DNA from: an archaeon
GTDB lineage: Archaea; Nanobdellota; Nanobdellia; Pacearchaeales; GW2011-AR1
DNA: 43,875 nucleotides
Direction of reading: 5' to 3'
Assembly: GCA_037140195.1 (NCBI GenBank)
Contig: JBAXEZ010000002.1
Span: 1-43,875 of the forward strand
Program-made: the position numbers and the translations under genes
Part shown: in pieces, positions 1,888 through 41,106 of the stretch
Layout: every line of letters starts with the position of its first letter
Numbering within the stretch: position 1 is the stretch's first letter
Notes under the pieces: model-generated
The model's database searches: none
Seen by the model: only the letters and a program-made list of their open reading frames with translations
Told to the model about the DNA's origin: nothing

Positions 1888-4662
1888 ATGATAAAACAGA
1901 GGGTAATTTTATTTTTAGTTATTTTAGTTGTTGGAATTTTTTTAGTGGGGGAGGTTAATGCGACCACCACTAACCAACTAATTAGTTCTGCTGCTAATTT
2001 TAATTATATTGTGGGTAATGCTGGTTCTCAGTGTTTTGATATTGGAATGGCTGTAAATTCTTTTTACTTATATACTTTTGTTAATCAATCGGATTCTACC
2101 TCAGGACCACTATATCACTCAGGATTTTACGTTGCTTTGTATAATAGTACTTGGGGGAGGATTGGTGATTCAACTAAGGGGTATTATACGGGTGATTTTT
2201 CTGGGACGTTAGACTTAGGTACTATTTCCTCTTTAAATGTTGGTTATGTGTGTCTCAGTACTAGTGCGTATCGATATTATAATAATGCCTGGCGTTCTGA
2301 CTCCTCAATTGGGTTTCCGTTTACGTTAACGGTTAATGGTTTTGGTGCTGTTGTACCGACTTGTGCAGAGAAATATCCGATTACTCCTCCTTGTGGCACT
2401 TATCCTAATTGTCGTGCATGTACTTGTGCGGATCCTCCAACAAATAATTGTGGCACTATTGGTTCTTGTCATACTTGTTCTTATGGTGCTTGCAGTACTC
2501 CTCCTAATGGTGGAAGTTATTCTGTAGCGCCAAATACTGGTTTATGTTCTGTTGGAACAAATAGTGCTGTGTCTGAATTATTTCATTCAGTTAATGGTGC
2601 GGTACATTTAGATGGATGGACCTGGAATTGTACATCAACAGATAGCACTGCTAGTTGTTCTGCAAATTATGTTTCTCCAGCATGTGTTGATAATGGTGCA
2701 TGTACTGCAGCAGGTACTTGTGTTGGTTCTACTTGTACTACAAATTGCGGTGTTTCTATTTCTGGAACTAAAACTTGCGGTGCTCCTGTTACTTTATCAG
2801 ATGTAGATGGAGATAATTATTATGAGATTCATAATTGTACTGAATTACAAAATATGTCGGCTAATTTAACTGCGAACTATGAATTAGCTAATGATATCAA
2901 CTGTATCAATACTTCTAATCCAAGTTCTGTTCTGTGGCATAGCGGTGCAGGATTTATGCCGATAGGCGGGGAAACTAGTCAGATTGTATTTAATGGTAAT
3001 TTTAAAGGAAATGGATTTACTATTTCTAATTTGTATATTAATCGATCTACAAGAGTTTATTCTGGCTTGTTCGGTTTTACCAATCGTAGTAATATTTCGG
3101 ATGTGGGGTTGGTTAACGTTAATATTACTTCTTATGGTCAAGTTGGTAGTTTGGTGGGATATCAAGCTTGGGGAATAATTGAAAGATCTTATTCTACTGG
3201 AACTTTGGAGGGGTTAGTATACGTTGGAGGGTTGGTCGGAGTTCAAGCAGGAGGGATAATAAATAATTCATATTCGCGGGCAGTTATAACTAATTCAATC
3301 TCTATGAGCAGCTCGGAGTTATATCCTTTTGGTGGGCTGGTTGCAATGCAACAACCCGGAAGTATTTATAATTCATATTCTACTGGAAAGATAAACGTAA
3401 CTTTCGAATCTATAAATCTGCAAGCATTAGGGATTTATTTTAATGGAGGGTTATTGGGCGGGCCAATTTCTAGTTCAGTTGCTAGTTCTTCTTATTGGGA
3501 TATGAATACTTCGAATAGAACTGTTTCTGCAGCAGGAACTGGGAGAAACACAACTCAAATGCAAACGCAGTCTACCTTTTCTGGATGGAATTTTACGAAT
3601 ATCTGGGGAATAAATTCCTCGATTAATGATGGATATCCTTTTTTAAGAGTGCAGGGGTTAACATATGTTCCCTCTTTATCTTCCTCGATGAATTGGACAG
3701 ATCTTAAAGGTGCTTCAATAAACAAAATTGATAAAGAAGACAGCGTGATTTTATTTTTCGGAAATGAAAATAGAAATGTTGAGGTGAACTATATGATTAA
3801 TAAAACTGGTTTGGCAACTGCAGTTTTATCTGGAACAACAAATAAAGGATTTGCTGTATGGAAAGCAAACGAATTAGGTAATTATACCTTTAGTATAACA
3901 AAAGATAATTGGGTAACTAGAGCTATCTCTGGGCCTTTAAATGTTACCAATGTTACTAATAATGCTCTTGCTGTTATCGATTCTATTATTCCAGTTAATG
4001 GGAAGCGTTTTTCAGTTGGTCAATTAATATGGTTTAATCAATCTTCTAGCGATGAAGATGACTTATTGAATTTGCTTTGGAATTTTAAGGATGGAAATAC
4101 TAAGTCAATTGATAATTATTCTTCCTTCGAAAATTCTTTAAATTCTAGTTTTGGAAGTATACAATATAATTATTCTGTTGCGGGGAATTATTTAGTTGAG
4201 CTGACTGCTAAAGAATCAGAAAGAGAGCAAGAAGCGGTTAAGTTTGCTAATATTCATATTCTTCAAACAGGAGTAAACGTTGTTCCAGTTATAACAACTC
4301 CTACAAATGGAGAGGTATACATTTCAGCAAATGATTTATATGTTACTTTTAATGCTTCTCAAACTTATGTAGTTAATTGTACTCTTTGTACTACTGGATG
4401 TTCTGGAGAAAGAGATAATGGGTTTTATAGCGAGGATGGAAAATTAAACTGTACCTATATGCATACTCCTGGAACGCGTATAAATAGCAATTTGTTAGAT
4501 CACAGTTTATTTTTTAATTGGACAACAGGGGACGGGGTTTCTTATTCTGGATATTGGAATGAAACAAATTATTATGGCTCTGTTGAGTTTGTGCATAGAT
4601 ATGCTAATCCCGGGAGATACACTGCTTCTCTGGCTGTTAGTTATCAAGGAGGGATTGTATGA
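1888..4662 (+). CDS. Secreted Cys-rich surface protein with a GLUG-motif domain and C-terminal PKD-like domains
   Basis: 924-aa ORF with signal-like N-terminus MIKQRVILFLVILVVGIFLVGEVNA. Cys-rich block (CVDNGACTAAGTCVGSTCTTNCG). GLUG-type repeats (GLFG, VGSLVGY, GGLVGVQAGGIINNSYS, WGINSSINDGYPFL). PKD-like segments (LLWNFKDGNTKS..YNYSVAGNYLVELTA; FFNWTTGDGVSYSG..HRYANPGRYTASLAVS). Confidence 0.8.
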   Translation: MIKQRVILFLVILVVGIFLVGEVNATTTNQLISSAANFNYIVGNAGSQCFDIGMAVNSFYLYTFVNQSDSTSGPLYHSGFYVALYNSTWGRIGDSTKGYYTGDFSGTLDLGTISSLNVGYVCLSTSAYRYYNNAWRSDSSIGFPFTLTVNGFGAVVPTCAEKYPITPPCGTYPNCRACTCADPPTNNCGTIGSCHTCSYGACSTPPNGGSYSVAPNTGLCSVGTNSAVSELFHSVNGAVHLDGWTWNCTSTDSTASCSANYVSPACVDNGACTAAGTCVGSTCTTNCGVSISGTKTCGAPVTLSDVDGDNYYEIHNCTELQNMSANLTANYELANDINCINTSNPSSVLWHSGAGFMPIGGETSQIVFNGNFKGNGFTISNLYINRSTRVYSGLFGFTNRSNISDVGLVNVNITSYGQVGSLVGYQAWGIIERSYSTGTLEGLVYVGGLVGVQAGGIINNSYSRAVITNSISMSSSELYPFGGLVAMQQPGSIYNSYSTGKINVTFESINLQALGIYFNGGLLGGPISSSVASSSYWDMNTSNRTVSAAGTGRNTTQMQTQSTFSGWNFTNIWGINSSINDGYPFLRVQGLTYVPSLSSSMNWTDLKGASINKIDKEDSVILFFGNENRNVEVNYMINKTGLATAVLSGTTNKGFAVWKANELGNYTFSITKDNWVTRAISGPLNVTNVTNNALAVIDSIIPVNGKRFSVGQLIWFNQSSSDEDDLLNLLWNFKDGNTKSIDNYSSFENSLNSSFGSIQYNYSVAGNYLVELTAKESEREQEAVKFANIHILQTGVNVVPVITTPTNGEVYISANDLYVTFNASQTYVVNCTLCTTGCSGERDNGFYSEDGKLNCTYMHTPGTRINSNLLDHSLFFNWTTGDGVSYSGYWNETNYYGSVEFVHRYANPGRYTASLAVSYQGGIV

Positions 4663-8500: not shown

Positions 8501-8776
8501 ACTGAAATGTATTGCGATGCAGTCATTGACCATAAGCTTAAACCTTTATTGGCAAATAGTGCGGTTTGTAGTTTTAGTTCTCAATGTAAGAGTAATTTGT
8601 GTGCAGTTAATGCTACTGGTACAATGGTTTGTTTAGATGTTCGGTCTCAAGTAAACTTTATTACTAATGCTTTGATCAGTATTAACTGCTTTTTAACTAA
8701 TGGGTTTAGTTGGTCTTCGACTGCGTATTTAACATGTGTTGATAATAAACAGCAGCAAGCAGGGCTTGGTGCGTGA
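5507..8776 (+). CDS. Very large secreted Cys-rich surface protein with a GLUG-motif domain (paralogue of 1888-4662)
   Basis: 1089-aa ORF with a signal-like N-terminus. It shares the CVDNG.CTAA.TC.G.TCTTNCG and HNC.ELQNMSANLTANYELANDI.C modules with the 1888 gene. GLUG repeats (GLFGRFAGNISNVGLININISGGQLVGGLVGQSSG..GGLVGQQAGG..WGISSSINDGYLYL). The C-terminal half is extremely Cys-rich. Confidence 0.8.
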   Translation: MSIKRGSGFVFVALALFVFSMMFTSAVVRTINIPSSVDLTKGQCQVFNFIDSANGNTAFTMDVKTVDISWASNGSMVRSGFVSSACYQGTGRVAIGTFIVGTTSSINNYNPSSPPQSNSYTLTNALSSGSLSVCYVSTSVSYCRNLKVISIDVTGETSYTGPTSGNTGSTCVDNGLCTAANTCSGLTCTTNCGATIYGGKYCGGGAGVGVGACVPNNACAVATCSSTTCLNTCNLPVQGTKTDGVCAGNAGVSASTTVGQCFTRCSGISVQDANFPMPRIINSPNSCPFGTRCGSLINIQNMTPNKISYDFVWEYNYADGSSNVICPCNATTKVYENIVRAPNVTGSYQLPIVANDFSNKIVSNVSLYLVAFNDTYRSTVSKVNYPVSNLVNVQVNYPCDNGCYQLGLNAPVYFSPGQTVGTTVWYKTCVKNANNICLKWSSKVKCTNGLIFNEQTKSCGVNPSLNYPNFNCNNGVCNHSGVASPYNSVLDATKSCGISDFSCFACNNGFVADSTQTKCVKANCNDNCSSTGGFCTRLESVNNGYNKVHNCVELQNMSANLTANYELANDIDCSDTINWNSGAGFKPIGNITSPFTGNFNGNSFIISNLKIDLPLSSSWVGLFGRFAGNISNVGLININISGGQLVGGLVGQSSGIISNSYTTGKVNGYVGNIGGLVGQQAGGVISNSYSLAEVISANYGCGGLVGNLNSGTISNSYSAGSVSCSSSIGGFIGIKDGGEVYKSFYNNETSGLNDNDGRGIPKTTVQMKDLSIFSTNGWDFANIWGISSSINDGYLYLKKSFGGMNINSQLECCTGEVCVQCSEGSHFYNGTCVSDDCTNLTGFAPQGFNFTAGVNKTNSSSVIMEWNYVSGVAGACQWNCSYGYTLNLSTNNTCQEIVKVNCTANVSKYICSNLSISNAFNNSQLGFCEDSSKSCFACNTNATLRDGVCVAKTCADDGLIDNGIECVANISCPSNKCTVKRNGVEKCVPDGLKMKVNNTEMYCDAVIDHKLKPLLANSAVCSFSSQCKSNLCAVNATGTMVCLDVRSQVNFITNALISINCFLTNGFSWSSTAYLTCVDNKQQQAGLGA

Positions 8777-35032: not shown

Positions 35033-35080
35033 TACATAAATCATTTTAAACCCTAAATTTTTCTAGAATACTGATTGAGG

Positions 35081-36802
35081 ATGATAAGTGAATATTGTAA
35101 ATTTATTGAAGAGAATGGTTTGTCTCCGTTTAATAAACTCAAGACTGCTGTGAATGGTGGTTCGGATTCTATTTACAAGACTAAAGATGGGAAGCTGATT
35201 CATAATAAGTTTTTGACTAAGATTTCTTCAAATTTTGTTTTTTCGGATAGTTCGAATCTTTGGCAGTGTCATTTTTTCACTGAAAATGCTAGTGAGATAA
35301 AAAGAAGACAGGAATTTTTTAGAAATTTGGTTTCCGTTGAAAATGATTTTCTTAAGAATTTAAAAAAGCCACGACAAGTTTGGTCTCCAAAGTATGAAGT
35401 TATTGCAGTTACTGAAAATGAAGATACTTTTGTTAAGCTAAACGAACTTGGATGTACAACAAAGTTTTTGTCTTCGGAATATGATTTGAATGATTTAGAA
35501 AGGTATGATATTGTTCAAGTAATTGATTGCGATGCGTTCCAAAGAGCACTCGAAAGTTTGCCTCAGTCTGTTTTTATTGATAACTTGGATGACGTTTATC
35601 TTGAGAGATACTTAGAGATTTTGTCTTCGTGGAGAGAAAATTTAGAAATTTTGAAACTAAATTCTTCTGATGGAGAAATATTAACTATTGTTCAAGAGTT
35701 GGCTCCGTTATTTCCTTTTTTGGGAGAAGTAAATTCTAAGATAATTAAGCGAGAGGAAGTTGCGGTTATTGTTGAAGAAATAAATAATAAGATTGAAGAG
35801 AAAATAAAAGATGTGACTATTTCTGGCGGTTCTTTGATGAAGATTCTTGGTGAGAAAAAACTCCCCCTAGAATTCCAAAAAGTTATCACTGATGCAATTA
35901 ATGAAAGCGGAGTTCCTGAGTATATTTTTAATTTTACTATCCCCGTTTCTGTAGATGAAAAAGAGCTTGATGATTTGATTAAAAGGCAAAGTGCGAATGA
36001 ATTTACTGATTTAGCAGAAGAAATAAAATCTAAGGCTAAGATTTTGAAGTCTATTCCTGAAAAGTTAAATAGGGTTTCTAGTTTGCTGTTGATTATGGAT
36101 TTTCTTGGAGGGATTTCTAAATATCTTGAGACGGTCAATTCAATTCCTATTGAAAGTAAGGAGTTGTTTATTTCGAATTCTAAAAATTATTTTTTAGATA
36201 ATCCTCAGCCTATTAGTTTTAATCTTTCAGGAGAGTATAGATGTTCCATTTTGACTGGGGCGAATAGCGGTGGAAAGACAACTTTACTTGAACATATTAT
36301 CCAGTTGATTTCTGCTTTCCAGATTGGTTTGCCGGTAAATGGCGAGGTGAATATGCCTATTTTTGAGGAAGTTTATTATTTTGCTAAGAATAAGGGTGCG
36401 GCAAATAAGGGTGCGTTCGAGAATCTTTTAACTCAGATGTCTGAGATTAAACCTGGAAATAGAACTTTAATTTTGGCTGATGAAATTGAAGCAGTAACTG
36501 AACCGGGAGTTGCTGGAAAAATAATTGCTTCTACTGCAGAATATTTCCTGAATAAAAATTGTTTCTTAATTATTGCAACTCACTTAGGTCACGAAATAAA
36601 AGATGTTCTTCCGTTGCATGCTAGAATAGACGGAATTGAAGCTAAGGGGCTTGACGCAGAGTTTAATTTAATCGTTGACCATAATCCGGTAATTGGAAGA
36701 CTAGCAAATTCTACGCCAGAATTAATCGTTGAGAAGATGGCTAATATTCATCATACAGAATATTTTATACATTTGAATGAGAAACTGAAACGGGGAAAGT
36801 AA
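35081..36802 (+). CDS. MutS-family ATPase (MutS2-like, domain V only; no Smr domain)
   Basis: Walker A ILTGANSGGKTTLLEHI, Walker B LILADEIEAVTEP, IIATHLGHE. ATG 35081 is preferred over TTG 35075. Confidence 0.85.
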   Translation: MISEYCKFIEENGLSPFNKLKTAVNGGSDSIYKTKDGKLIHNKFLTKISSNFVFSDSSNLWQCHFFTENASEIKRRQEFFRNLVSVENDFLKNLKKPRQVWSPKYEVIAVTENEDTFVKLNELGCTTKFLSSEYDLNDLERYDIVQVIDCDAFQRALESLPQSVFIDNLDDVYLERYLEILSSWRENLEILKLNSSDGEILTIVQELAPLFPFLGEVNSKIIKREEVAVIVEEINNKIEEKIKDVTISGGSLMKILGEKKLPLEFQKVITDAINESGVPEYIFNFTIPVSVDEKELDDLIKRQSANEFTDLAEEIKSKAKILKSIPEKLNRVSSLLLIMDFLGGISKYLETVNSIPIESKELFISNSKNYFLDNPQPISFNLSGEYRCSILTGANSGGKTTLLEHIIQLISAFQIGLPVNGEVNMPIFEEVYYFAKNKGAANKGAFENLLTQMSEIKPGNRTLILADEIEAVTEPGVAGKIIASTAEYFLNKNCFLIIATHLGHEIKDVLPLHARIDGIEAKGLDAEFNLIVDHNPVIGRLANSTPELIVEKMANIHHTEYFIHLNEKLKRGK

Positions 36803-36803
36803 A

Positions 36804-36841
36804 GTCTACATTTTAATTTATGTCTACAAAAATGTCTACAA
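36804..36841 (+). repeat. GTCTACA-box 1 (three GTCTACA motifs in 38 nt)
   Basis: gtctacattttaatttatgtctacaaaaatgtctacaa. 32 of 38 nt identical to 37795-37832. It overlaps the Fic stop codon. Confidence 0.7.
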
Positions 36842-37780
36842 TTTAGATTTAATCTCTTTTTTGGTGGATTTGTACTCTTTTAATAAAAATTCGATTGTAG
36901 GGCGTAAATTTTTGTTCTTTTCATATTCTTGTAGACAGGCATAATATTCGTGTCTATTTGCTAACTTTATGTCTATTGGTGGAAGGTTGTGCTTTATTAA
37001 TATATTATTTAAAATTATTCTTCCCACTCTTCCGTTTCCGTCTGCAAATGGGTGTATATTTTCAAATTGATTGTGGACAACGGAAGCTAAAATTATTCCC
37101 GGATATTTTGCTTTATTGTTATTGTACCAGTCTACTAAATTTTGTAATAGTCCTAAAACTCTTGATTGTGGTGCTCCTTCATGCACTACTTTTCCAGAAG
37201 AAGACATCACAACTACTTCTTGTCCTGGTTTTCTAAATTCACCTGCAAAATTTTTAGAATTTTTAAAAACTTCTTTATGTATTTCTTTTAATAGCTGGAC
37301 TGATAAATGCTCTTTTGTTTCTCTAATAAACTTTATTGCTTCTTTGACTCCATAAGCTTCGGCTATGTCTTCTTTTGATTTTTCTGGCCATTTATTTTCC
37401 GTTAATATTCCAGAAACTTCTTTCGAGGTAAGTTCGCTTCCTTCTATTGCATTTGTATTATATGTGAAATTTGTGGAGAAGATATCCCATTCTTTTTCAG
37501 ATAAATGTGTAACCTTAAAGTCTGCTTGCAATTCTAATTTTTTAATAAAAGAAAGTTCTTCTTTAGAGAGTTCTTTATCTAATGGGTCCTGAATAATTTT
37601 ATATTTTCCAATTTCTTCTAAAATTAGGGTTTCTAGTTTTTTCTTTCGTTCTTCTAGCATTTCTTTAGATAGGTCAGTTCCAATTAATTTTCTTATTTTG
37701 TGAACTTTCTCTCCTTCTCTAAAAGAATGAGCTAAAAAGTATTTTTTCTTTCCTTTGATGATTTTTTCTTCGATGTACAT
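36836..37780 (-). CDS. fic: Fic/Fido-domain protein (AMPylase family) with an N-terminal inhibitory-helix motif
   Basis: Active-site motif HPFADGNGRVGR (HxFx[D/E]GNGRxxR). TNAIEG matches the [S/T]xxxE[G/N] auto-inhibition motif N-terminal to the core (class II layout). Confidence 0.9.
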   Translation of the reverse strand: MYIEEKIIKGKKKYFLAHSFREGEKVHKIRKLIGTDLSKEMLEERKKKLETLILEEIGKYKIIQDPLDKELSKEELSFIKKLELQADFKVTHLSEKEWDIFSTNFTYNTNAIEGSELTSKEVSGILTENKWPEKSKEDIAEAYGVKEAIKFIRETKEHLSVQLLKEIHKEVFKNSKNFAGEFRKPGQEVVVMSSSGKVVHEGAPQSRVLGLLQNLVDWYNNNKAKYPGIILASVVHNQFENIHPFADGNGRVGRIILNNILIKHNLPPIDIKLANRHEYYACLQEYEKNKNLRPTIEFLLKEYKSTKKEIKSKL

Positions 37781-37794
37781 AATATACTAATAGT

Positions 37795-37832
37795 GTCTAC
37801 ATTTATAAACATTTCTACAAAAATGTCTACAA
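37795..37832 (+). repeat. GTCTACA-box 2, containing the Fic TATA box
   Basis: gtctacatttataaacatttctacaaaaatgtctacaa. TTTATAAA at 37802-37809 is ~25 nt upstream of the Fic ATG (minus strand) and is flanked by the repeat motifs. Confidence 0.7.
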
Positions 37833-37838
37833 GCTAGT

Positions 37839-37913
37839 GAGAAGATGGCGAACATTCATCAGACAGAATATTTTAAATATTTGAATGAGAAGCTGAAACG
37901 GGGAAAGAATTAA
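37839..37913 (+). pseudogene. Displaced, diverged copy of the last 23 codons of the MutS-like gene
   Basis: It translates in frame as EKMANIHQTEYFKYLNEKLKRGKN*, versus EKMANIHHTEYFIHLNEKLKRGK* at the real gene end. Confidence 0.7.
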
Positions 37914-37937
37914 AAAGGTTTAATCATTCGGTCGGAT

Positions 37938-38237
37938 ATGAAAAAAGATACATTTCTTAAAAAGTTTCCGAGAAAATATACAACCGAAAATTTTCCAGTA
38001 AAAAATGGAGTCTCTTTTTCATCTCTTCCTTCTAAAGTTAGGTTGGAAATAATTATTCATGTTACTGCAAGTATATTTTTTAATTTATTTCTGATATTTT
38101 TTGGTATATACTTTATTTTTATAGACTTATTGCAGGGATGGGTGGGTATTGTTGCAGGTCTTATTCTATTATCGCTTATATTGTTAGCTATTAAACTAAA
38201 AAAGTGGAATAGCATTTTAAATACTATAAACTGGTAA
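37938..38237 (+). CDS. Small membrane protein (two TM segments)
   Basis: 99 aa. Hydrophobic stretches IIIHVTASIFFNLFLIFFGIYFIFI and WVGIVAGLILLSLILLAI. Confidence 0.5.
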   Translation: MKKDTFLKKFPRKYTTENFPVKNGVSFSSLPSKVRLEIIIHVTASIFFNLFLIFFGIYFIFIDLLQGWVGIVAGLILLSLILLAIKLKKWNSILNTINW

Positions 38238-38284
38238 TTTCTCAAATAGCATAGCTTTATAATGCCATATTTCTGTAAATAAAC

Positions 38285-38845: not shown

Positions 38846-39595
38846 ATGGGAAGCAAACTAATTCAGTATAAGGGCGATTTTGTAACTTGTTCCAAAAAGA
38901 TTGCATATGCTGGGCAAAGAATTGCAACGACAAGAGACGGAATGCTGGATGCATTTAGGCGAAAAGCAACCTTTCAAGATAAGATGACTCATGCTTCTAG
39001 TTGTTGGTATTCAGAAGGAACTGCTAGAATTGATGGCGTAAATTATTGGTGTTCGGCAGAATATGCTCCGACAACTCGTTACACTTACAAAGCTCGAGAA
39101 GAAAATGAAATGGGCAATTTCTTAGCATTAACTCCTGATTTAAATGTCGGAAATAAACCGGCATTAGAAGTTATTCCTCGAATTGCAGAGGAAGATAAAA
39201 ACAAACTTCCAGAAAGAAGGAGGGTTCTGATTCCAGAAATACAGAGAAATTTTTCAGTAACTTCTACTGCTTTCGTGTATATTGACATTGCTAGATTTCT
39301 GGCAAGAGATTTAACTCTCGCACAAGACTATGGTCGTCTTTTATCGGAGTATTGCGGAATGAAATCTATTATGTTTTATCAACTTTCTGGACGGAAGGAT
39401 GTTGCAGCAGGAATTTCACTTGCTAGGTTGGCAGCTGCAGATTCTTTTCTTTTTGATGGTCATAATAGTGATTTTTTTGATAATGAAAATTTTATGTTCG
39501 GAAAGCAAAAAGATATTGTGCCAGAAGTTATAACGCCGACAGCAGAACAATCTGCAATTATTGAAATGGTGTTAAAAAATAGGCCTAAAAAATAA
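38846..39595 (+). CDS. Unknown-family protein, paralogue 1 of 3 (249 aa)
   Basis: Shares blocks with the next two genes: FV.C, IAT.R.GM, EGTA.I.GV.YWC..EYAPTT, ALE.IP.IAEEDK.K.PE.RR.LIP, DIARFLARD..LA.DY, FYQ, AAG, IIE..L.NRPKK. Confidence 0.75.
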   Translation: MGSKLIQYKGDFVTCSKKIAYAGQRIATTRDGMLDAFRRKATFQDKMTHASSCWYSEGTARIDGVNYWCSAEYAPTTRYTYKAREENEMGNFLALTPDLNVGNKPALEVIPRIAEEDKNKLPERRRVLIPEIQRNFSVTSTAFVYIDIARFLARDLTLAQDYGRLLSEYCGMKSIMFYQLSGRKDVAAGISLARLAAADSFLFDGHNSDFFDNENFMFGKQKDIVPEVITPTAEQSAIIEMVLKNRPKK

Positions 39596-39596
39596 A

Positions 39597-40352
39597 ATGG
39601 AAAATAAATTAACTAAGTATAATGGAAATTTTGTAAAGTGTTCAAAAAAGATTGCAAAGGCGGGTGAGATAATAGCTACTGCTCGTGAGGGGATGATTGA
39701 GAGGATTGCGAGACGAAAAACTTCTCGGTATGAATCTAAGGGTTGTTGGCATTCGGAGGGCACTGCAAATATTGATGGAGTGACTTATTGGTGTTTAGCA
39801 GAATATGCTCCTACAACTCAAAATATTAAAAGAACATACGCTGCCAACTTTGAAGGGTTATATCTTCCTTTAATAAGTAATGTAAAAATAAGGGTAGAAT
39901 CTGCATTGGAACTTATTCCGAGAATAGCTGCGGAAGATAAAAATAAACTTCCTGAGCAAAGAAGAGTTTTAATTCCCGAGATGCAAGACACTTTTATAAT
40001 AGATTCAGCAGAGTTTGGTAATATAGACATTGCTAGATTTTTAGCTAGAGATGCAACACTTGCGAAAGATTATAGTCATCTTTTAGATATTTTTTATGGT
40101 ACAAAGTTTACTTCTTTTTATCAACTTGCAGTAGATGAAAATTCTGCAGCAGGAGTATTTTTGGGAGTAGTTGGAGATGTATCTCATTTTACAGTTTATG
40201 GTACTGATGGAGATTTTTCAGATAGTAATGGGCGTATGTTTGGAACGACTGCCAAATCGCAGGTTATTGGTTTAGAAAAAAAAGCTATAAAACCTACACC
40301 TAAACAATTAGCAATTATAGAGCAATTGCTTATGAATCGTCCTAAAAAATAA
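39597..40352 (+). CDS. Unknown-family protein, paralogue 2 of 3 (251 aa)
   Basis: Same conserved blocks. Starts 1 nt after the upstream stop. Confidence 0.75.
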   Translation: MENKLTKYNGNFVKCSKKIAKAGEIIATAREGMIERIARRKTSRYESKGCWHSEGTANIDGVTYWCLAEYAPTTQNIKRTYAANFEGLYLPLISNVKIRVESALELIPRIAAEDKNKLPEQRRVLIPEMQDTFIIDSAEFGNIDIARFLARDATLAKDYSHLLDIFYGTKFTSFYQLAVDENSAAGVFLGVVGDVSHFTVYGTDGDFSDSNGRMFGTTAKSQVIGLEKKAIKPTPKQLAIIEQLLMNRPKK

Positions 40353-40353
40353 A

Positions 40354-41106
40354 ATGGAAAATAAATTAAATAGATACGTTGGAAATTTTGTAAGTTGTCT
40401 TAATCAAATTACTGAAGCTGGAGAAAGAATGGCGACAGCTAGGGAGGCTATGATTCGTAGATTTTCAACTGGAAGGATCAACTTATGGCAGGATGGTTTC
40501 TGCCCTGAAGGAACTGCTAGAATCAATGGGGTTACTTATTGGTGTTTGGGAGAATATGCTCCGACAACACAAAATGTTATGCAAACGTTATGCGCAAATG
40601 GTTCTGGTAAGCTTTTAGAGTTAGTAGATACTGTGAGAATTGGAAATGACTTGGCTTTGGAAGTTATCCCGAAAATTGCGGAAGAGGATAAATTCAAACG
40701 TCCAGAAGACAGAAGAATTTTAATTCCTTCTAGGCAGCAAGAATTTTTTGCAATAGATCCCTCTAATCTAGGTGAGGTGGATATTGCTAGATTCTTAGCA
40801 AGAGATTCAGATCTCGCGCAAGATTATGGTAAACTATTGCGTGATAATTGCGGCGTAAAACACTTTAATTTTTATCAACCTTCTGGAAACGTAAATGTTG
40901 CCGCAGGATTCTGGTTTCCGGGAGTACAGCACAATAGTAGTTCTTGTTTTCATGGTAGCTGTTCAGAGCTTTCTTCAGCTATTGGTGCTGCATATGGTAT
41001 CTCTACAACCTCTAAAGAGGCGAGTGCTGATATTGAAGAGATAATCTCTCCGGAGGAGACATCGAATATTATTGAAATGTTATTGAAAAATAGGCCGAAA
41101 AAATAA
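40354..41106 (+). CDS. Unknown-family protein, paralogue 3 of 3 (250 aa)
   Basis: Same conserved blocks. Starts 1 nt after the upstream stop. Confidence 0.75.
   Translation: MENKLNRYVGNFVSCLNQITEAGERMATAREAMIRRFSTGRINLWQDGFCPEGTARINGVTYWCLGEYAPTTQNVMQTLCANGSGKLLELVDTVRIGNDLALEVIPKIAEEDKFKRPEDRRILIPSRQQEFFAIDPSNLGEVDIARFLARDSDLAQDYGKLLRDNCGVKHFNFYQPSGNVNVAAGFWFPGVQHNSSSCFHGSCSELSSAIGAAYGISTTSKEASADIEEIISPEETSNIIEMLLKNRPKK

Follow-up and report, generated by a model that had tools for sequence, protein, structure and literature searches.

A gene for a Fic-domain protein in the chromosome of an archaeon of the DPANN group is carried by a portable, self-contained single-gene cassette, in which the gene lies between two matching arrays of a heptanucleotide motif. 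This cassette is inserted directly behind a gene for a MutS-like ATPase, so that the last 23 codons of the latter are present on both sides of the insert, once as its functional 3' end and once as an orphan. The DNA in question (hereinafter the window) comprises 43,875 nucleotides (nt) of contig JBAXEZ010000002.1, is identical in sequence to contig CAZYDM010000006.1 (assembly GCA_964645175.1) and encodes, among other housekeeping proteins, prolyl-tRNA synthetase (ProRS), deoxyhypusine synthase, pyruvate:ferredoxin oxidoreductase and a beta-CASP nuclease. Cassettes with the same ends were found at other loci in related genomes, and in one of these a second orphaned gene tail was identified. The original prediction, made from the window alone, had interpreted the two tail copies as the attL and attR sites of an element that was integrated by a site-specific integrase and brought a dedicated replacement tail. 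This mechanism was not supported, given six insertion sites that share no core, duplications of 77, ~31 and ~0 nt and the lack of an integrase in the insert and the window. We tentatively favor the alternative that the duplicated tail is an acquisition scar, formed through homology-facilitated illegitimate recombination, of presumed enzymology, that would have displaced the resident tail.

The target gene (35075..36802, plus strand) encodes a protein of 573-575 amino acids (aa) and is conserved and syntenic in related Woesearchaeota/Pacearchaeota genomes. Relatives for comparison were fetched via the MutS-like protein and via Fic homologues; the resulting loci are numbered L004-L060, and the taxon labels are Candidatus Woesearchaeota, Pacearchaeota or Nanoarchaeota. 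The match of the protein to the Pfam domain MutS_V is weak (E 2.4e-5, under the gathering score), and its 845 homologues, which some sources name MutS2, show 55-90% identity. In the list of open reading frames (ORFs), the gene starts with TTG at 35075-35083 (575 aa); in the identical contigs and in all relatives, it is called from an ATG two codons further on (573 aa).

The last 23 codons of this gene, EKMANIHHTEYFIHLNEKLKRGK followed by the stop codon, recur 1108 nt downstream. The functional copy (tail1, 36730..36803, plus strand), consisting of these codons, the stop codon TAA and one more base, abuts the cassette directly. The orphan copy (tail2, 37838..37914, plus strand) consists of the 23 codons, an extra AAT codon, the stop and one base, and has no gene body attached. 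A repeat search recovered a direct repeat of 70 nt (36730-36799 and 37838-37907; spacing 1108 nt) with 64/70 identical positions (91%), essentially the repeat of 63/69 nt that had been claimed originally. If an indel is allowed for the extra AAT codon, the two copies remain homologous through the stop codon and one further base (tail1 ...GGAAAG TAA A, tail2 ...GGAAAG AAT TAA A), yielding a unit of 74 and 77 nt, respectively, that stops exactly at the first GTCTACA heptamer of the insert. When the two flanks (220 nt each) are aligned locally, the score is 55, compared to 9.0 +/- 1.1 for shuffled sequences (z = 40), and the duplication is not due to chance. Furthermore, the segment is not a dispersed repeat: every match in the fetched loci is either the 3' end of a MutS-like gene or the window's own orphan. 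Thus, the window contains an intact gene followed by foreign DNA and a truncated orphan of the gene's own 3' end; the same arrangement was found at a beta-CASP gene in L016 (see below).

The codon alignment of the tails confirms that three of the six substitutions are synonymous (GCT/GCG, AAT/AAC, AAA/AAG) and three are not (H/Q, I/K, H/Y), and that the reading frame of the orphan is open. From this mix, it had been concluded that both tails evolved as coding sequences; however, three out of six does not differ significantly from the neutral expectation of ~25% (binomial p ~0.17). The assignment of the tails to a donor or a recipient lineage depends on these six substitutions and the one codon indel, which are of mixed polarity and include one or two deciding sites. 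The orphan belongs to the same sub-clade as tail1 (CGG GGA AAG), and the tails of one genome match each other at one variant, namely, GGA/GGA in the window and GGC/GGC in L021. Tail1 shares the isoleucine codon ATA with the closest relative, L009, which has no Fic gene, whereas the orphan has AAA at this position. A recombination breakpoint within the MutS-like gene near the tail was considered and rejected because sliding identity against eight relatives showed no sharp switch there.

The cassette itself occupies 1,028 base pairs (36804 to 37831 or 37832) and has the structure array-fic-array. The arrays, located right inside the tails, had been missed originally; they are a further direct-repeat pair, made of GTCTACA heptamers (36804-36846 and 37795-37837, 43 nt, 81% identity). 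This heptamer occurs in 8 copies in the window compared to 2.8 expected, and 5 of the 8 lie within the two arrays. Read in the sense of fic, each end of the cassette consists of three direct TGTAGAC heptamers spaced by 5 and 11 nt. The 3' array (36804..36846, minus strand) reads TTG TAG AC-ATTTT-TGTAGAC-ATAAATTAAAA-TGTAGAC, with an 11-nt spacer before the last heptamer; the stop codon of fic (TAG) sits within the first heptamer, and the run of five T residues is likely an archaeal terminator. The 5' array (37795..37832, minus strand) reads T-TGTAGAC-ATTTT-TGTAGAA-ATGTTTATAAA-TGTAGAC and conforms to the consensus T-TGTAGAC-ATTTT-TGTAGAA-(A/T)(A/T)GTTTATAAA-TGTAGAC. It includes TTTATAAA (37802-37809), which ends 21 nt before the ATG of fic and, judging from the sequence and the established geometry of archaeal promoters, would be the B recognition element (BRE)/TATA promoter of a leaderless fic mRNA. 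Between the outer edge of the 5' array and the orphan tail lies a 5-nt filler, GCTAG (37833..37837), that belongs neither to the cassette nor to the MutS-like gene.

The fic gene (36836..37780, minus strand; 314 aa) is the only credible gene in the insert. A search of the insert and of the whole 43.9-kb window, with the listed neighbors, revealed no recombinase and no domain of an integrase or transposase, in agreement with the original description of an insert carrying a class II-like Fic gene and no recombinase, which the Pfam match (PF02661) and the sequence motifs bear out. The cassette also lacks transposase and nuclease domains, and its ends are direct repeats rather than terminal inverted repeats. 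There is one copy in the window and one in each contig examined. Of the two characterizations of the insert offered originally, that of a minimal cassette mobilized in trans is still a fair one, as would be that of an acquisition scar, whereas that of a decayed island does not fit a self-contained 1,028-bp unit.

The proposed search for the cassette at other loci was productive. Eight cassettes at six genomic sites could be measured end to end; all are 1019-1036 nt long and end alike, and the arrays are present in three others. When cassettes from different sites are compared, the 30 nt on the inner side of the array edges are 70-100% identical, and the 30 nt on the outer side 10-47%, the background level. 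Given this sharp drop and the constant length, the cassette is a discrete unit. The layout of the 3' array is conserved in every cassette for which this array was read whole, and homology between cassettes ends at its outer edge. Two of the sites are occupied in close relatives of the window: the MutS tail, in the window itself and in L020/L021 (Fic proteins 92% identical), and the end of the beta-CASP gene (its 3' end), at a distance of ~1 kb, where the cassettes of L016, a close relative, and L022 are 90.6% and 83.8% identical to that of the window at the nucleotide level. In L023 (GCA_964460535.1), the cassette is located ~95 nt past a tRNA-Asp gene; in L055, it adjoins a DisA-like gene; and L052 and L058 represent two further sites. 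No core sequence shared by the six sites was found, the flanks outside the arrays being at the background identity given above.

All members of this Fic family that were examined, the most distant at 65% identity, have the arrays around them. The more distant cassettes L035, L045 and L060 have a variant motif, TGTAGTCAC, at both ends, and the 5-nt spacer covaries between the ends (ATTTT/ATTTT, AAAAT/AAAAT in L055, AAAAA/AAAAA in L058). At the same time, the features specific to the 5' array (TGTAGAA, TATA) and to the 3' array (TGTAGAC, stop codon) are stable across the family. The phylogeny of the cassettes is in conflict with their position: 32 informative sites group the window with L016, compared to 14 that support the site-consistent grouping, and the identity along the cassette is mosaic. 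This conflict, together with the mosaic pattern, indicates exchange between strains.

Several additional observations concern the same motif or the same family. A scan of IMG/VR with the 18-mer TGTAGACATTTTTGTAGA gave 11 matches, none of which is a Fic cassette and some of which are contigs of bacterial phages. In the higher-G+C, phage-like IMG/VR contigs L024 (2540-2790), L025 (7340-7620) and L027, a tyrosine-integrase-like gene lies beside a tRNA fragment with direct ATGTCTACA repeats on either side, which have the same heptamer as the Fic arrays. These resemble arm-type sites around an att core and are probably unrelated to the Fic cassette. In L045, where the Fic protein is 70% identical, a 92-nt direct repeat (1252-1343 and 4040-4131; 98.9%) brackets a 2.79-kb segment that holds the cassette and two ORFs (165 and 186 aa) without family matches; by eye, each repeat copy appears to lie inside its own tRNA-like gene, whereas ARAGORN calls none. 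L050 (2,843 nt) is a circular permutation of this segment with a 55-nt terminal overlap and may represent a genuine circle or else a loop made by the assembly. Given that such a loop could run through the 92-nt repeat, L045 and L050 were not used as evidence in the form of an integrated/circular pair. The short, ~1-kb Fic contigs L059 and L060 show no circular overlap.

That the Fic gene is a genuine insertion, as originally proposed, is apparent from relatives in which the MutS tail is present without Fic behind it, namely, L009 (the closest, with 91-92% nucleotide identity in the MutS-like gene), L005, L006, L010/L018, L012, L015 and L016. The exact empty site, that is, the MutS-like gene followed directly by the sequence from 37914 onward, was not found in the databases because the ORF located there has no homologue other than itself. 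This ORF (37938..38237, plus strand; 99 aa, a predicted membrane protein) is an ORFan and serves as a marker of the original DNA downstream, with which the orphan tail is continuous; its sole match among 5.8 billion proteins is itself, and it is absent from all related loci. At the beta-CASP gene, an empty site is found in L012, where the gene end (...AAA CTA TAA ATTAAT...) runs into a convergent zinc-finger gene. No array box was detected in the empty sites, either at the MutS-like gene of the relatives or at the beta-CASP gene of L012.

The neighborhood is hypervariable. The next conserved gene after the MutS-like gene encodes a treble-clef zinc-finger protein, and the interval from the MutS-like gene to the promoter of this gene, CCCAATTACATAGCTTTATAATG (36803-38284 in the window, compared with L004-L018), contains a different small gene in almost every relative and none in L005. 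Likewise, the interval between the zinc-finger and beta-CASP genes harbors a different small gene in nearly every relative. Such variable content between conserved flanks makes the locus a hot spot of gene turnover by recombination. In L004, a Fic gene without heptamer arrays lies in the first interval; it is unrelated to that of the cassette (46% identical over 79 aa). The second interval contains the Fic cassette in L016 and L022, another small ORF in L005 and nothing in L012; in the window, it contains three tandem paralogues (38846-41106; 249-251 aa, 45-50% identical to each other, without a Pfam or PHROG family) that are absent from all related loci fetched. The beta-CASP gene of L005, a genome without the Fic cassette, terminates in GAA TTG TAG AAAG (8590-8620), with a TTAAATAAA-type box and another small ORF behind it; the resemblance of this region to the second heptamer and TATA of the 5' array could be due to chance or could be a remnant of an earlier cassette.

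The junctions were compared at the two recent sites, in four genomes. The near junction, by the intact gene, is the same in the window and L021 at the MutS-like gene (TAA A/T, then GTCTACA) and in L016 and L022 at the beta-CASP gene (T, then TTGTAGAC). In L022, the cassette is located just before CTA TAA, so that TTG TAG of the array now ends the beta-CASP gene, and the far end consists of a 10-nt filler, ATAAAAACAC, without any duplication. In L016, where the live beta-CASP gene is also finished by TTG TAG of the array, the far junction consists of ACAAAAC followed by ~31 nt copied from the beta-CASP tail (20/21 nt identical at the core, z = 10) and then the native GAA CTA TAA. Given that L016 and L022 share the near junction and the first 7-9 nt of the far junction and differ in the duplication (31 vs 0 nt), duplication appears separable from insertion. 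The far junction GCTAG(T) is common to the window and L021; in L021, the orphan is partly decayed and located 31 nt further from the array, and the DNA beyond is different (a TrmB gene, in L020/L021). Altogether, the duplications measure 77 nt in the window, ~31 nt in L016 and ~0 nt in L022, fillers of 5-10 nt are present at the far junction only, and no flank repeat is found at the five older insertions. Accordingly, the junction is fixed on the side of the intact gene and ragged on the far side, and orphans fade with age.

In the window, the distal part of the orphan might be retained for a separate reason. Its stop-codon region (AATTAAAAA, ~37908-37916; GAATTAAAAAGG in 37905-37940) is located 20-30 nt ahead of the ATG of the 99-aa ORF, the position expected for the TATA box of an archaeal leaderless mRNA. 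This region may serve as the TATA box of that ORF, which could account for the retention.

The cassette-encoded protein matches Pfam PF02661 with 70.7 bits (cut-off 24) and contains the active-site motif HPFADGNGRVGR (residues 243-254) and the inhibitory motif TNAIEG (residues 109-114). In the alignment with human FICD obtained by a PDB sequence search, TNAIEG is matched with TVAIEG and HPFADGNGRVGR with HPFIDGNGRTSR. Both the active-site motif HxFx(D/E)GNGRxxR and the inhibitory motif are invariant in 25 homologues. TNAIEG fits the pattern (S/T)xxxE(G/N) and, in the predicted structure, is part of a helix that precedes the core in the same polypeptide. The AlphaFold model (pLDDT 85.6) is matched by Foldseek to FICD with E 1.7e-12. 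By both motifs, the protein is a class II, FICD-like enzyme and presumably an AMP-transferase checked by its own inhibitory helix. The family is abundant in these archaea, with 3,317 homologues, all of ~311-316 aa. In L054 (sample ERZ27300065, the same population), which is identical to the window over 5,990 nt save one base, a C>A change (plus strand; window 37063, L054 4718) converts codon 240 of fic (GAA) into a stop codon just ahead of the HPFADGNGR active site; this natural null allele (E240*) shows that fic can be lost.

The first 62 residues of the Fic protein form a separate N-terminal domain consisting of a three-strand beta sheet and a long helix (pLDDT ~85-90), and the rest is the class II core. 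This domain is basic and nearly invariant in the family, especially in the first 35 residues. Its best structural match in the PDB (Foldseek) is 3rmp_C, the arm-type DNA-binding domain of a P4-like (high pathogenicity island, HPI) integrase (E 0.39, probability 0.72, TM-score 0.47), and 3jtz is ranked fifth; the resemblance is weak, if suggestive. Similar N-termini may occur in transposases of the IS1634 type, which is not used as evidence here. The domain also occurs at the N-termini of other proteins (P0323, P0325, P0315 and P0350), of which one carries a HAD hydrolase domain (284 aa), another a PEP-utiliser mobile domain (534 aa) and two have no known function; many short proteins also contain it. 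Given its occurrence alone and on other enzymes, it appears to be a portable module. We infer that, in the Fic protein, this domain would bind the arrays, autoregulating fic and marking both ends of the cassette. Considering that the arrays accompany every examined member of the family, that motif variants change at both ends together and that the 5-nt spacers covary, a partnership between the protein and its sites, most simply for autoregulation, appears to be the most economical reading. The same partnership could mark the ends for whatever moves the cassette. For a Fic protein of Coxiella, DNA binding is reported to alter (de)AMPylation (PMC10628234).

How the tail came to be duplicated is a question on which several scenarios can be compared. 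In the one we prefer, the DNA that brought the cassette into the lineage would have included the end of a MutS-like gene as well. Homology in the MutS-like gene would anchor the recombination at one side; at the other, a non-homologous join, with the 5-nt filler, would link the 5'-array end to the resident gene at a point 23 codons ahead of its stop. The tail of the resident gene would thus be pushed downstream as an orphan, still on its native downstream DNA, and the copy next to the cassette would now complete the gene. A single crossover of a circular intermediate bearing a tail copy would be an equivalent variant, and some factor that recognizes the cassette ends possibly assists. A homology anchor combined with a non-homologous join predicts a conserved near junction and a variable far junction. 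The asymmetry of the junctions, the continuity of the orphan with lineage-specific DNA (the ORFan in the window, the TrmB gene in L020/L021), the conflict between cassette tree and site and the hypervariability of the locus all fit such a homology-anchored acquisition from another strain.

Several points weigh against this scenario. Illegitimate joins should usually drag along extra donor DNA, and yet four junctions at the two sites fall within 0-10 nt of the array edges; given such sharp ends, some end-specific activity that the scenario does not name seems to be involved. Nor does the scenario explain the first arrival of the cassette at each new site. The window and L021 share the GCTAG junction and differ beyond the orphan, which requires a later replacement anchored in the orphan, and the variant shared by the two tails within each genome is more simply explained by self-duplication or gene conversion. 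Moreover, which of the two tails is foreign is decided by one or two sites, and tail1 shares ATA with the cassette-free L009. With regard to the N-domain, its resemblance to an arm-binding domain has an E-value of 0.39, a PDB profile search and Pfam with an E-value limit of 10 returned only noise with respect to DNA-binding domains of integrases and transposases, and none of 113 profile hits, from 1.84 billion representatives searched, is a fusion to an integrase or recombinase. Finally, the data include two recent sites only. Because the sharp ends and the first arrival are left unexplained and the shared variant has a simpler explanation elsewhere, our preference for a homology-anchored acquisition stays slightly short of even confidence.

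Site-specific integration, the scenario of the original prediction, would involve a circle carrying attP (5' array, MutS tail, 3' array) and a tyrosine-type recombinase acting in trans, with the arrays serving as arm sites bound by the N-domain of Fic or by the integrase and the two tails representing attL and attR. The core-arm ... arm-core layout, with the heptamer arrays 1-5 nt from each tail copy, and the best fold match of the N-domain, an integrase arm-binding domain, are compatible with this possibility; by analogy only, the ATGTCTACA arrays of L024, L025 and L027 show that such arm sites exist elsewhere, and the location of the cassette of L045/L050 in a 2.79-kb segment with a 92-nt repeat, circularly permuted in one contig, would also fit. 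However, with a dedicated integrase, a single core, a single target and a recombinase would be expected. The recombinase is absent from the cassette and from the window, the six sites are unrelated and without a common core, and the "core" would be the tail of a different gene at each of the two recent sites, with the two tails in opposite orientations relative to the cassette. The insertion in L022 is not accompanied by any duplicated core and the five older insertions have no flank repeat, the stable 5'- and 3'-specific features imply that the arrays are not hybrid products of att recombination, the N-domain is not fused to an integrase in any of the 113 hits, and the L050 circle is perhaps an assembly loop through the 92-nt repeat. 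Given this balance, we consider site-specific integration unlikely. Two related models were rejected: a single-box circle, produced by recombination between the arrays and re-integrated at a box-like target, is at odds with the stability of the 5'- and 3'-specific array features and with the lack of a box in the empty sites, and a long terminal repeat-type or retrotransposition mechanism is at odds with the same stability and with the absence of a reverse transcriptase.

Another scenario, to which we assign a similarly low probability, is insertion with a long target duplication of variable length: machinery recognizing the ends, possibly with array-bound Fic, would excise or copy the cassette precisely at the array edges and insert it at two independent, staggered nicks near gene 3' ends, and gap filling would duplicate 0-77 nt, so that the tails were identical at insertion and have diverged since. 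This would account for cassette ends that are precise to a few nt at every site, for duplications at both recent sites, for the lineage variants shared by the real and the orphan tails (GGA/GGA, GGC/GGC), for the presence of tail2 in the sub-clade of tail1 (CGG GGA AAG) and for the concerted evolution of the two arrays, including the 5-nt spacer. Conversely, no known prokaryotic transposition system yields variable duplications of 30-77 nt plus filler. A classical transposase predicts inverted ends and a fixed-length duplication; here, the ends are direct, the duplication length is not fixed (77, ~31, ~0 nt), a single copy is present per contig examined and there is no transposase or nuclease domain. 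The comparison of L016 and L022 (31 vs 0 nt) separates duplication from insertion, and the AAA codon of tail2, in the place of ATA in tail1 and in the cassette-free L009, can be reconciled with this scenario only by a reversal or by an insertion that occurred early and was then lost. In a still less probable version, the array-fic-array unit would be a minimal mobile element of a new kind, and the Fic protein, with its arm-like N-domain bound to both arrays, would itself promote excision and insertion near gene 3' ends, alone or by recruiting a host nuclease or recombinase; target duplications of variable length would result, and the concerted evolution of the arrays would be a trace of this cycle. 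Local rearrangement without any mobility, that is, tandem duplication of the MutS tail through the cassette followed by deletions, with the different positions reflecting scrambling of gene order, would be in line with the location of both alternative sites within ~1.5 kb in one hypervariable neighborhood and with the mosaic structure of the whole region among strains. It would require at least two independent breakpoints exactly on array edges, twice (at the MutS-like and beta-CASP genes), and leaves unexplained the cassettes with the same ends at unrelated loci in L023, L052, L055 and L058, which renders this scenario highly improbable.

By its observed features, the cassette lacks what defines an integrase element (a recombinase and a common core) and what defines an insertion sequence or transposon (inverted ends and a fixed duplication). 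The integrative elements of the lambda, P4 and SSV type are similar in their direct repeats derived from the 3' end of the target gene, the preservation of an intact gene, the adjoining arrays of short repeats and the empty sites in relatives. They differ from the case described here, in which there is no integrase, the insert is 1 kb long with a single non-recombinase gene, the sites are many and coreless, the duplication varies from 0 to 77 nt, and the arrays lie 1-5 nt from the "core" as opposed to the tens of nt that separate arm arrays from the core in those elements. Promoter-bearing single-gene cassettes such as those of integrons are likewise ~1-kb one-gene units with defined ends that move between positions in related genomes; however, the Fic cassette has its own promoter and lacks the imperfect inverted repeat of the attC type, an integron integrase and a cassette array. 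Among class II Fic proteins (human FICD/HYPE, Bacteroides BT_2513 and Clostridium difficile Fic), the core fold, the motif HPFx(D/E)GNGRxxR and the inhibitory helix (S/T)xxxE(G/N) are shared, whereas the tetratricopeptide repeat (TPR) or winged-helix modules of those proteins are replaced here by the 62-residue domain of three-strand sheet and helix, and the gene is located between heptamer arrays.

The closest parallel appears to be provided by polymorphic-toxin loci, namely, the Rhs, contact-dependent inhibition (CDI) and type VI secretion system (T6SS) loci, where 3' ends are orphaned by displacement, attributed to homology-facilitated illegitimate recombination (PMC5361080). There, as would be the case here, a module recombines via a conserved upstream gene segment and displaces the resident 3' end downstream without a dedicated integrase (PMC5361080). 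The difference is that the displaced part in these loci is a toxin tip with an immunity gene and no terminal repeat arrays are involved, whereas in the DPANN archaeon 23 codons of a housekeeping-type ATPase are displaced by a sharply bounded cassette with arrays. By this analogy, the Fic cassette seems to work most like displacement at polymorphic-toxin loci, with the addition of a previously undescribed feature, a single gene bounded by matching heptamer arrays. In a limited literature search, no description of Fic cassettes of this kind in DPANN archaea was found.

DPANN archaea have tiny genomes with few recognizable mobile elements, and the ways in which they gain and shuffle genes are poorly understood. 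The locus analyzed here provides a concrete, repeatable case of a promoter-bearing single-gene cassette that moves between the 3' ends of conserved genes in closely related strains, where orphan gene tails date and orient the insertion events. The scar itself is ordinary biology, and it is the array-fic-array cassette and its mobility that are notable. If the orphan is an ordinary recombination scar, then tail duplications are insufficient evidence for an integrase. If the arrays and the N-terminal domain indeed form an autoregulatory or end-marking pair, this would explain the widespread architecture of the family and would offer a tractable handle on it in the form of a 7-nt motif and a 62-residue domain.

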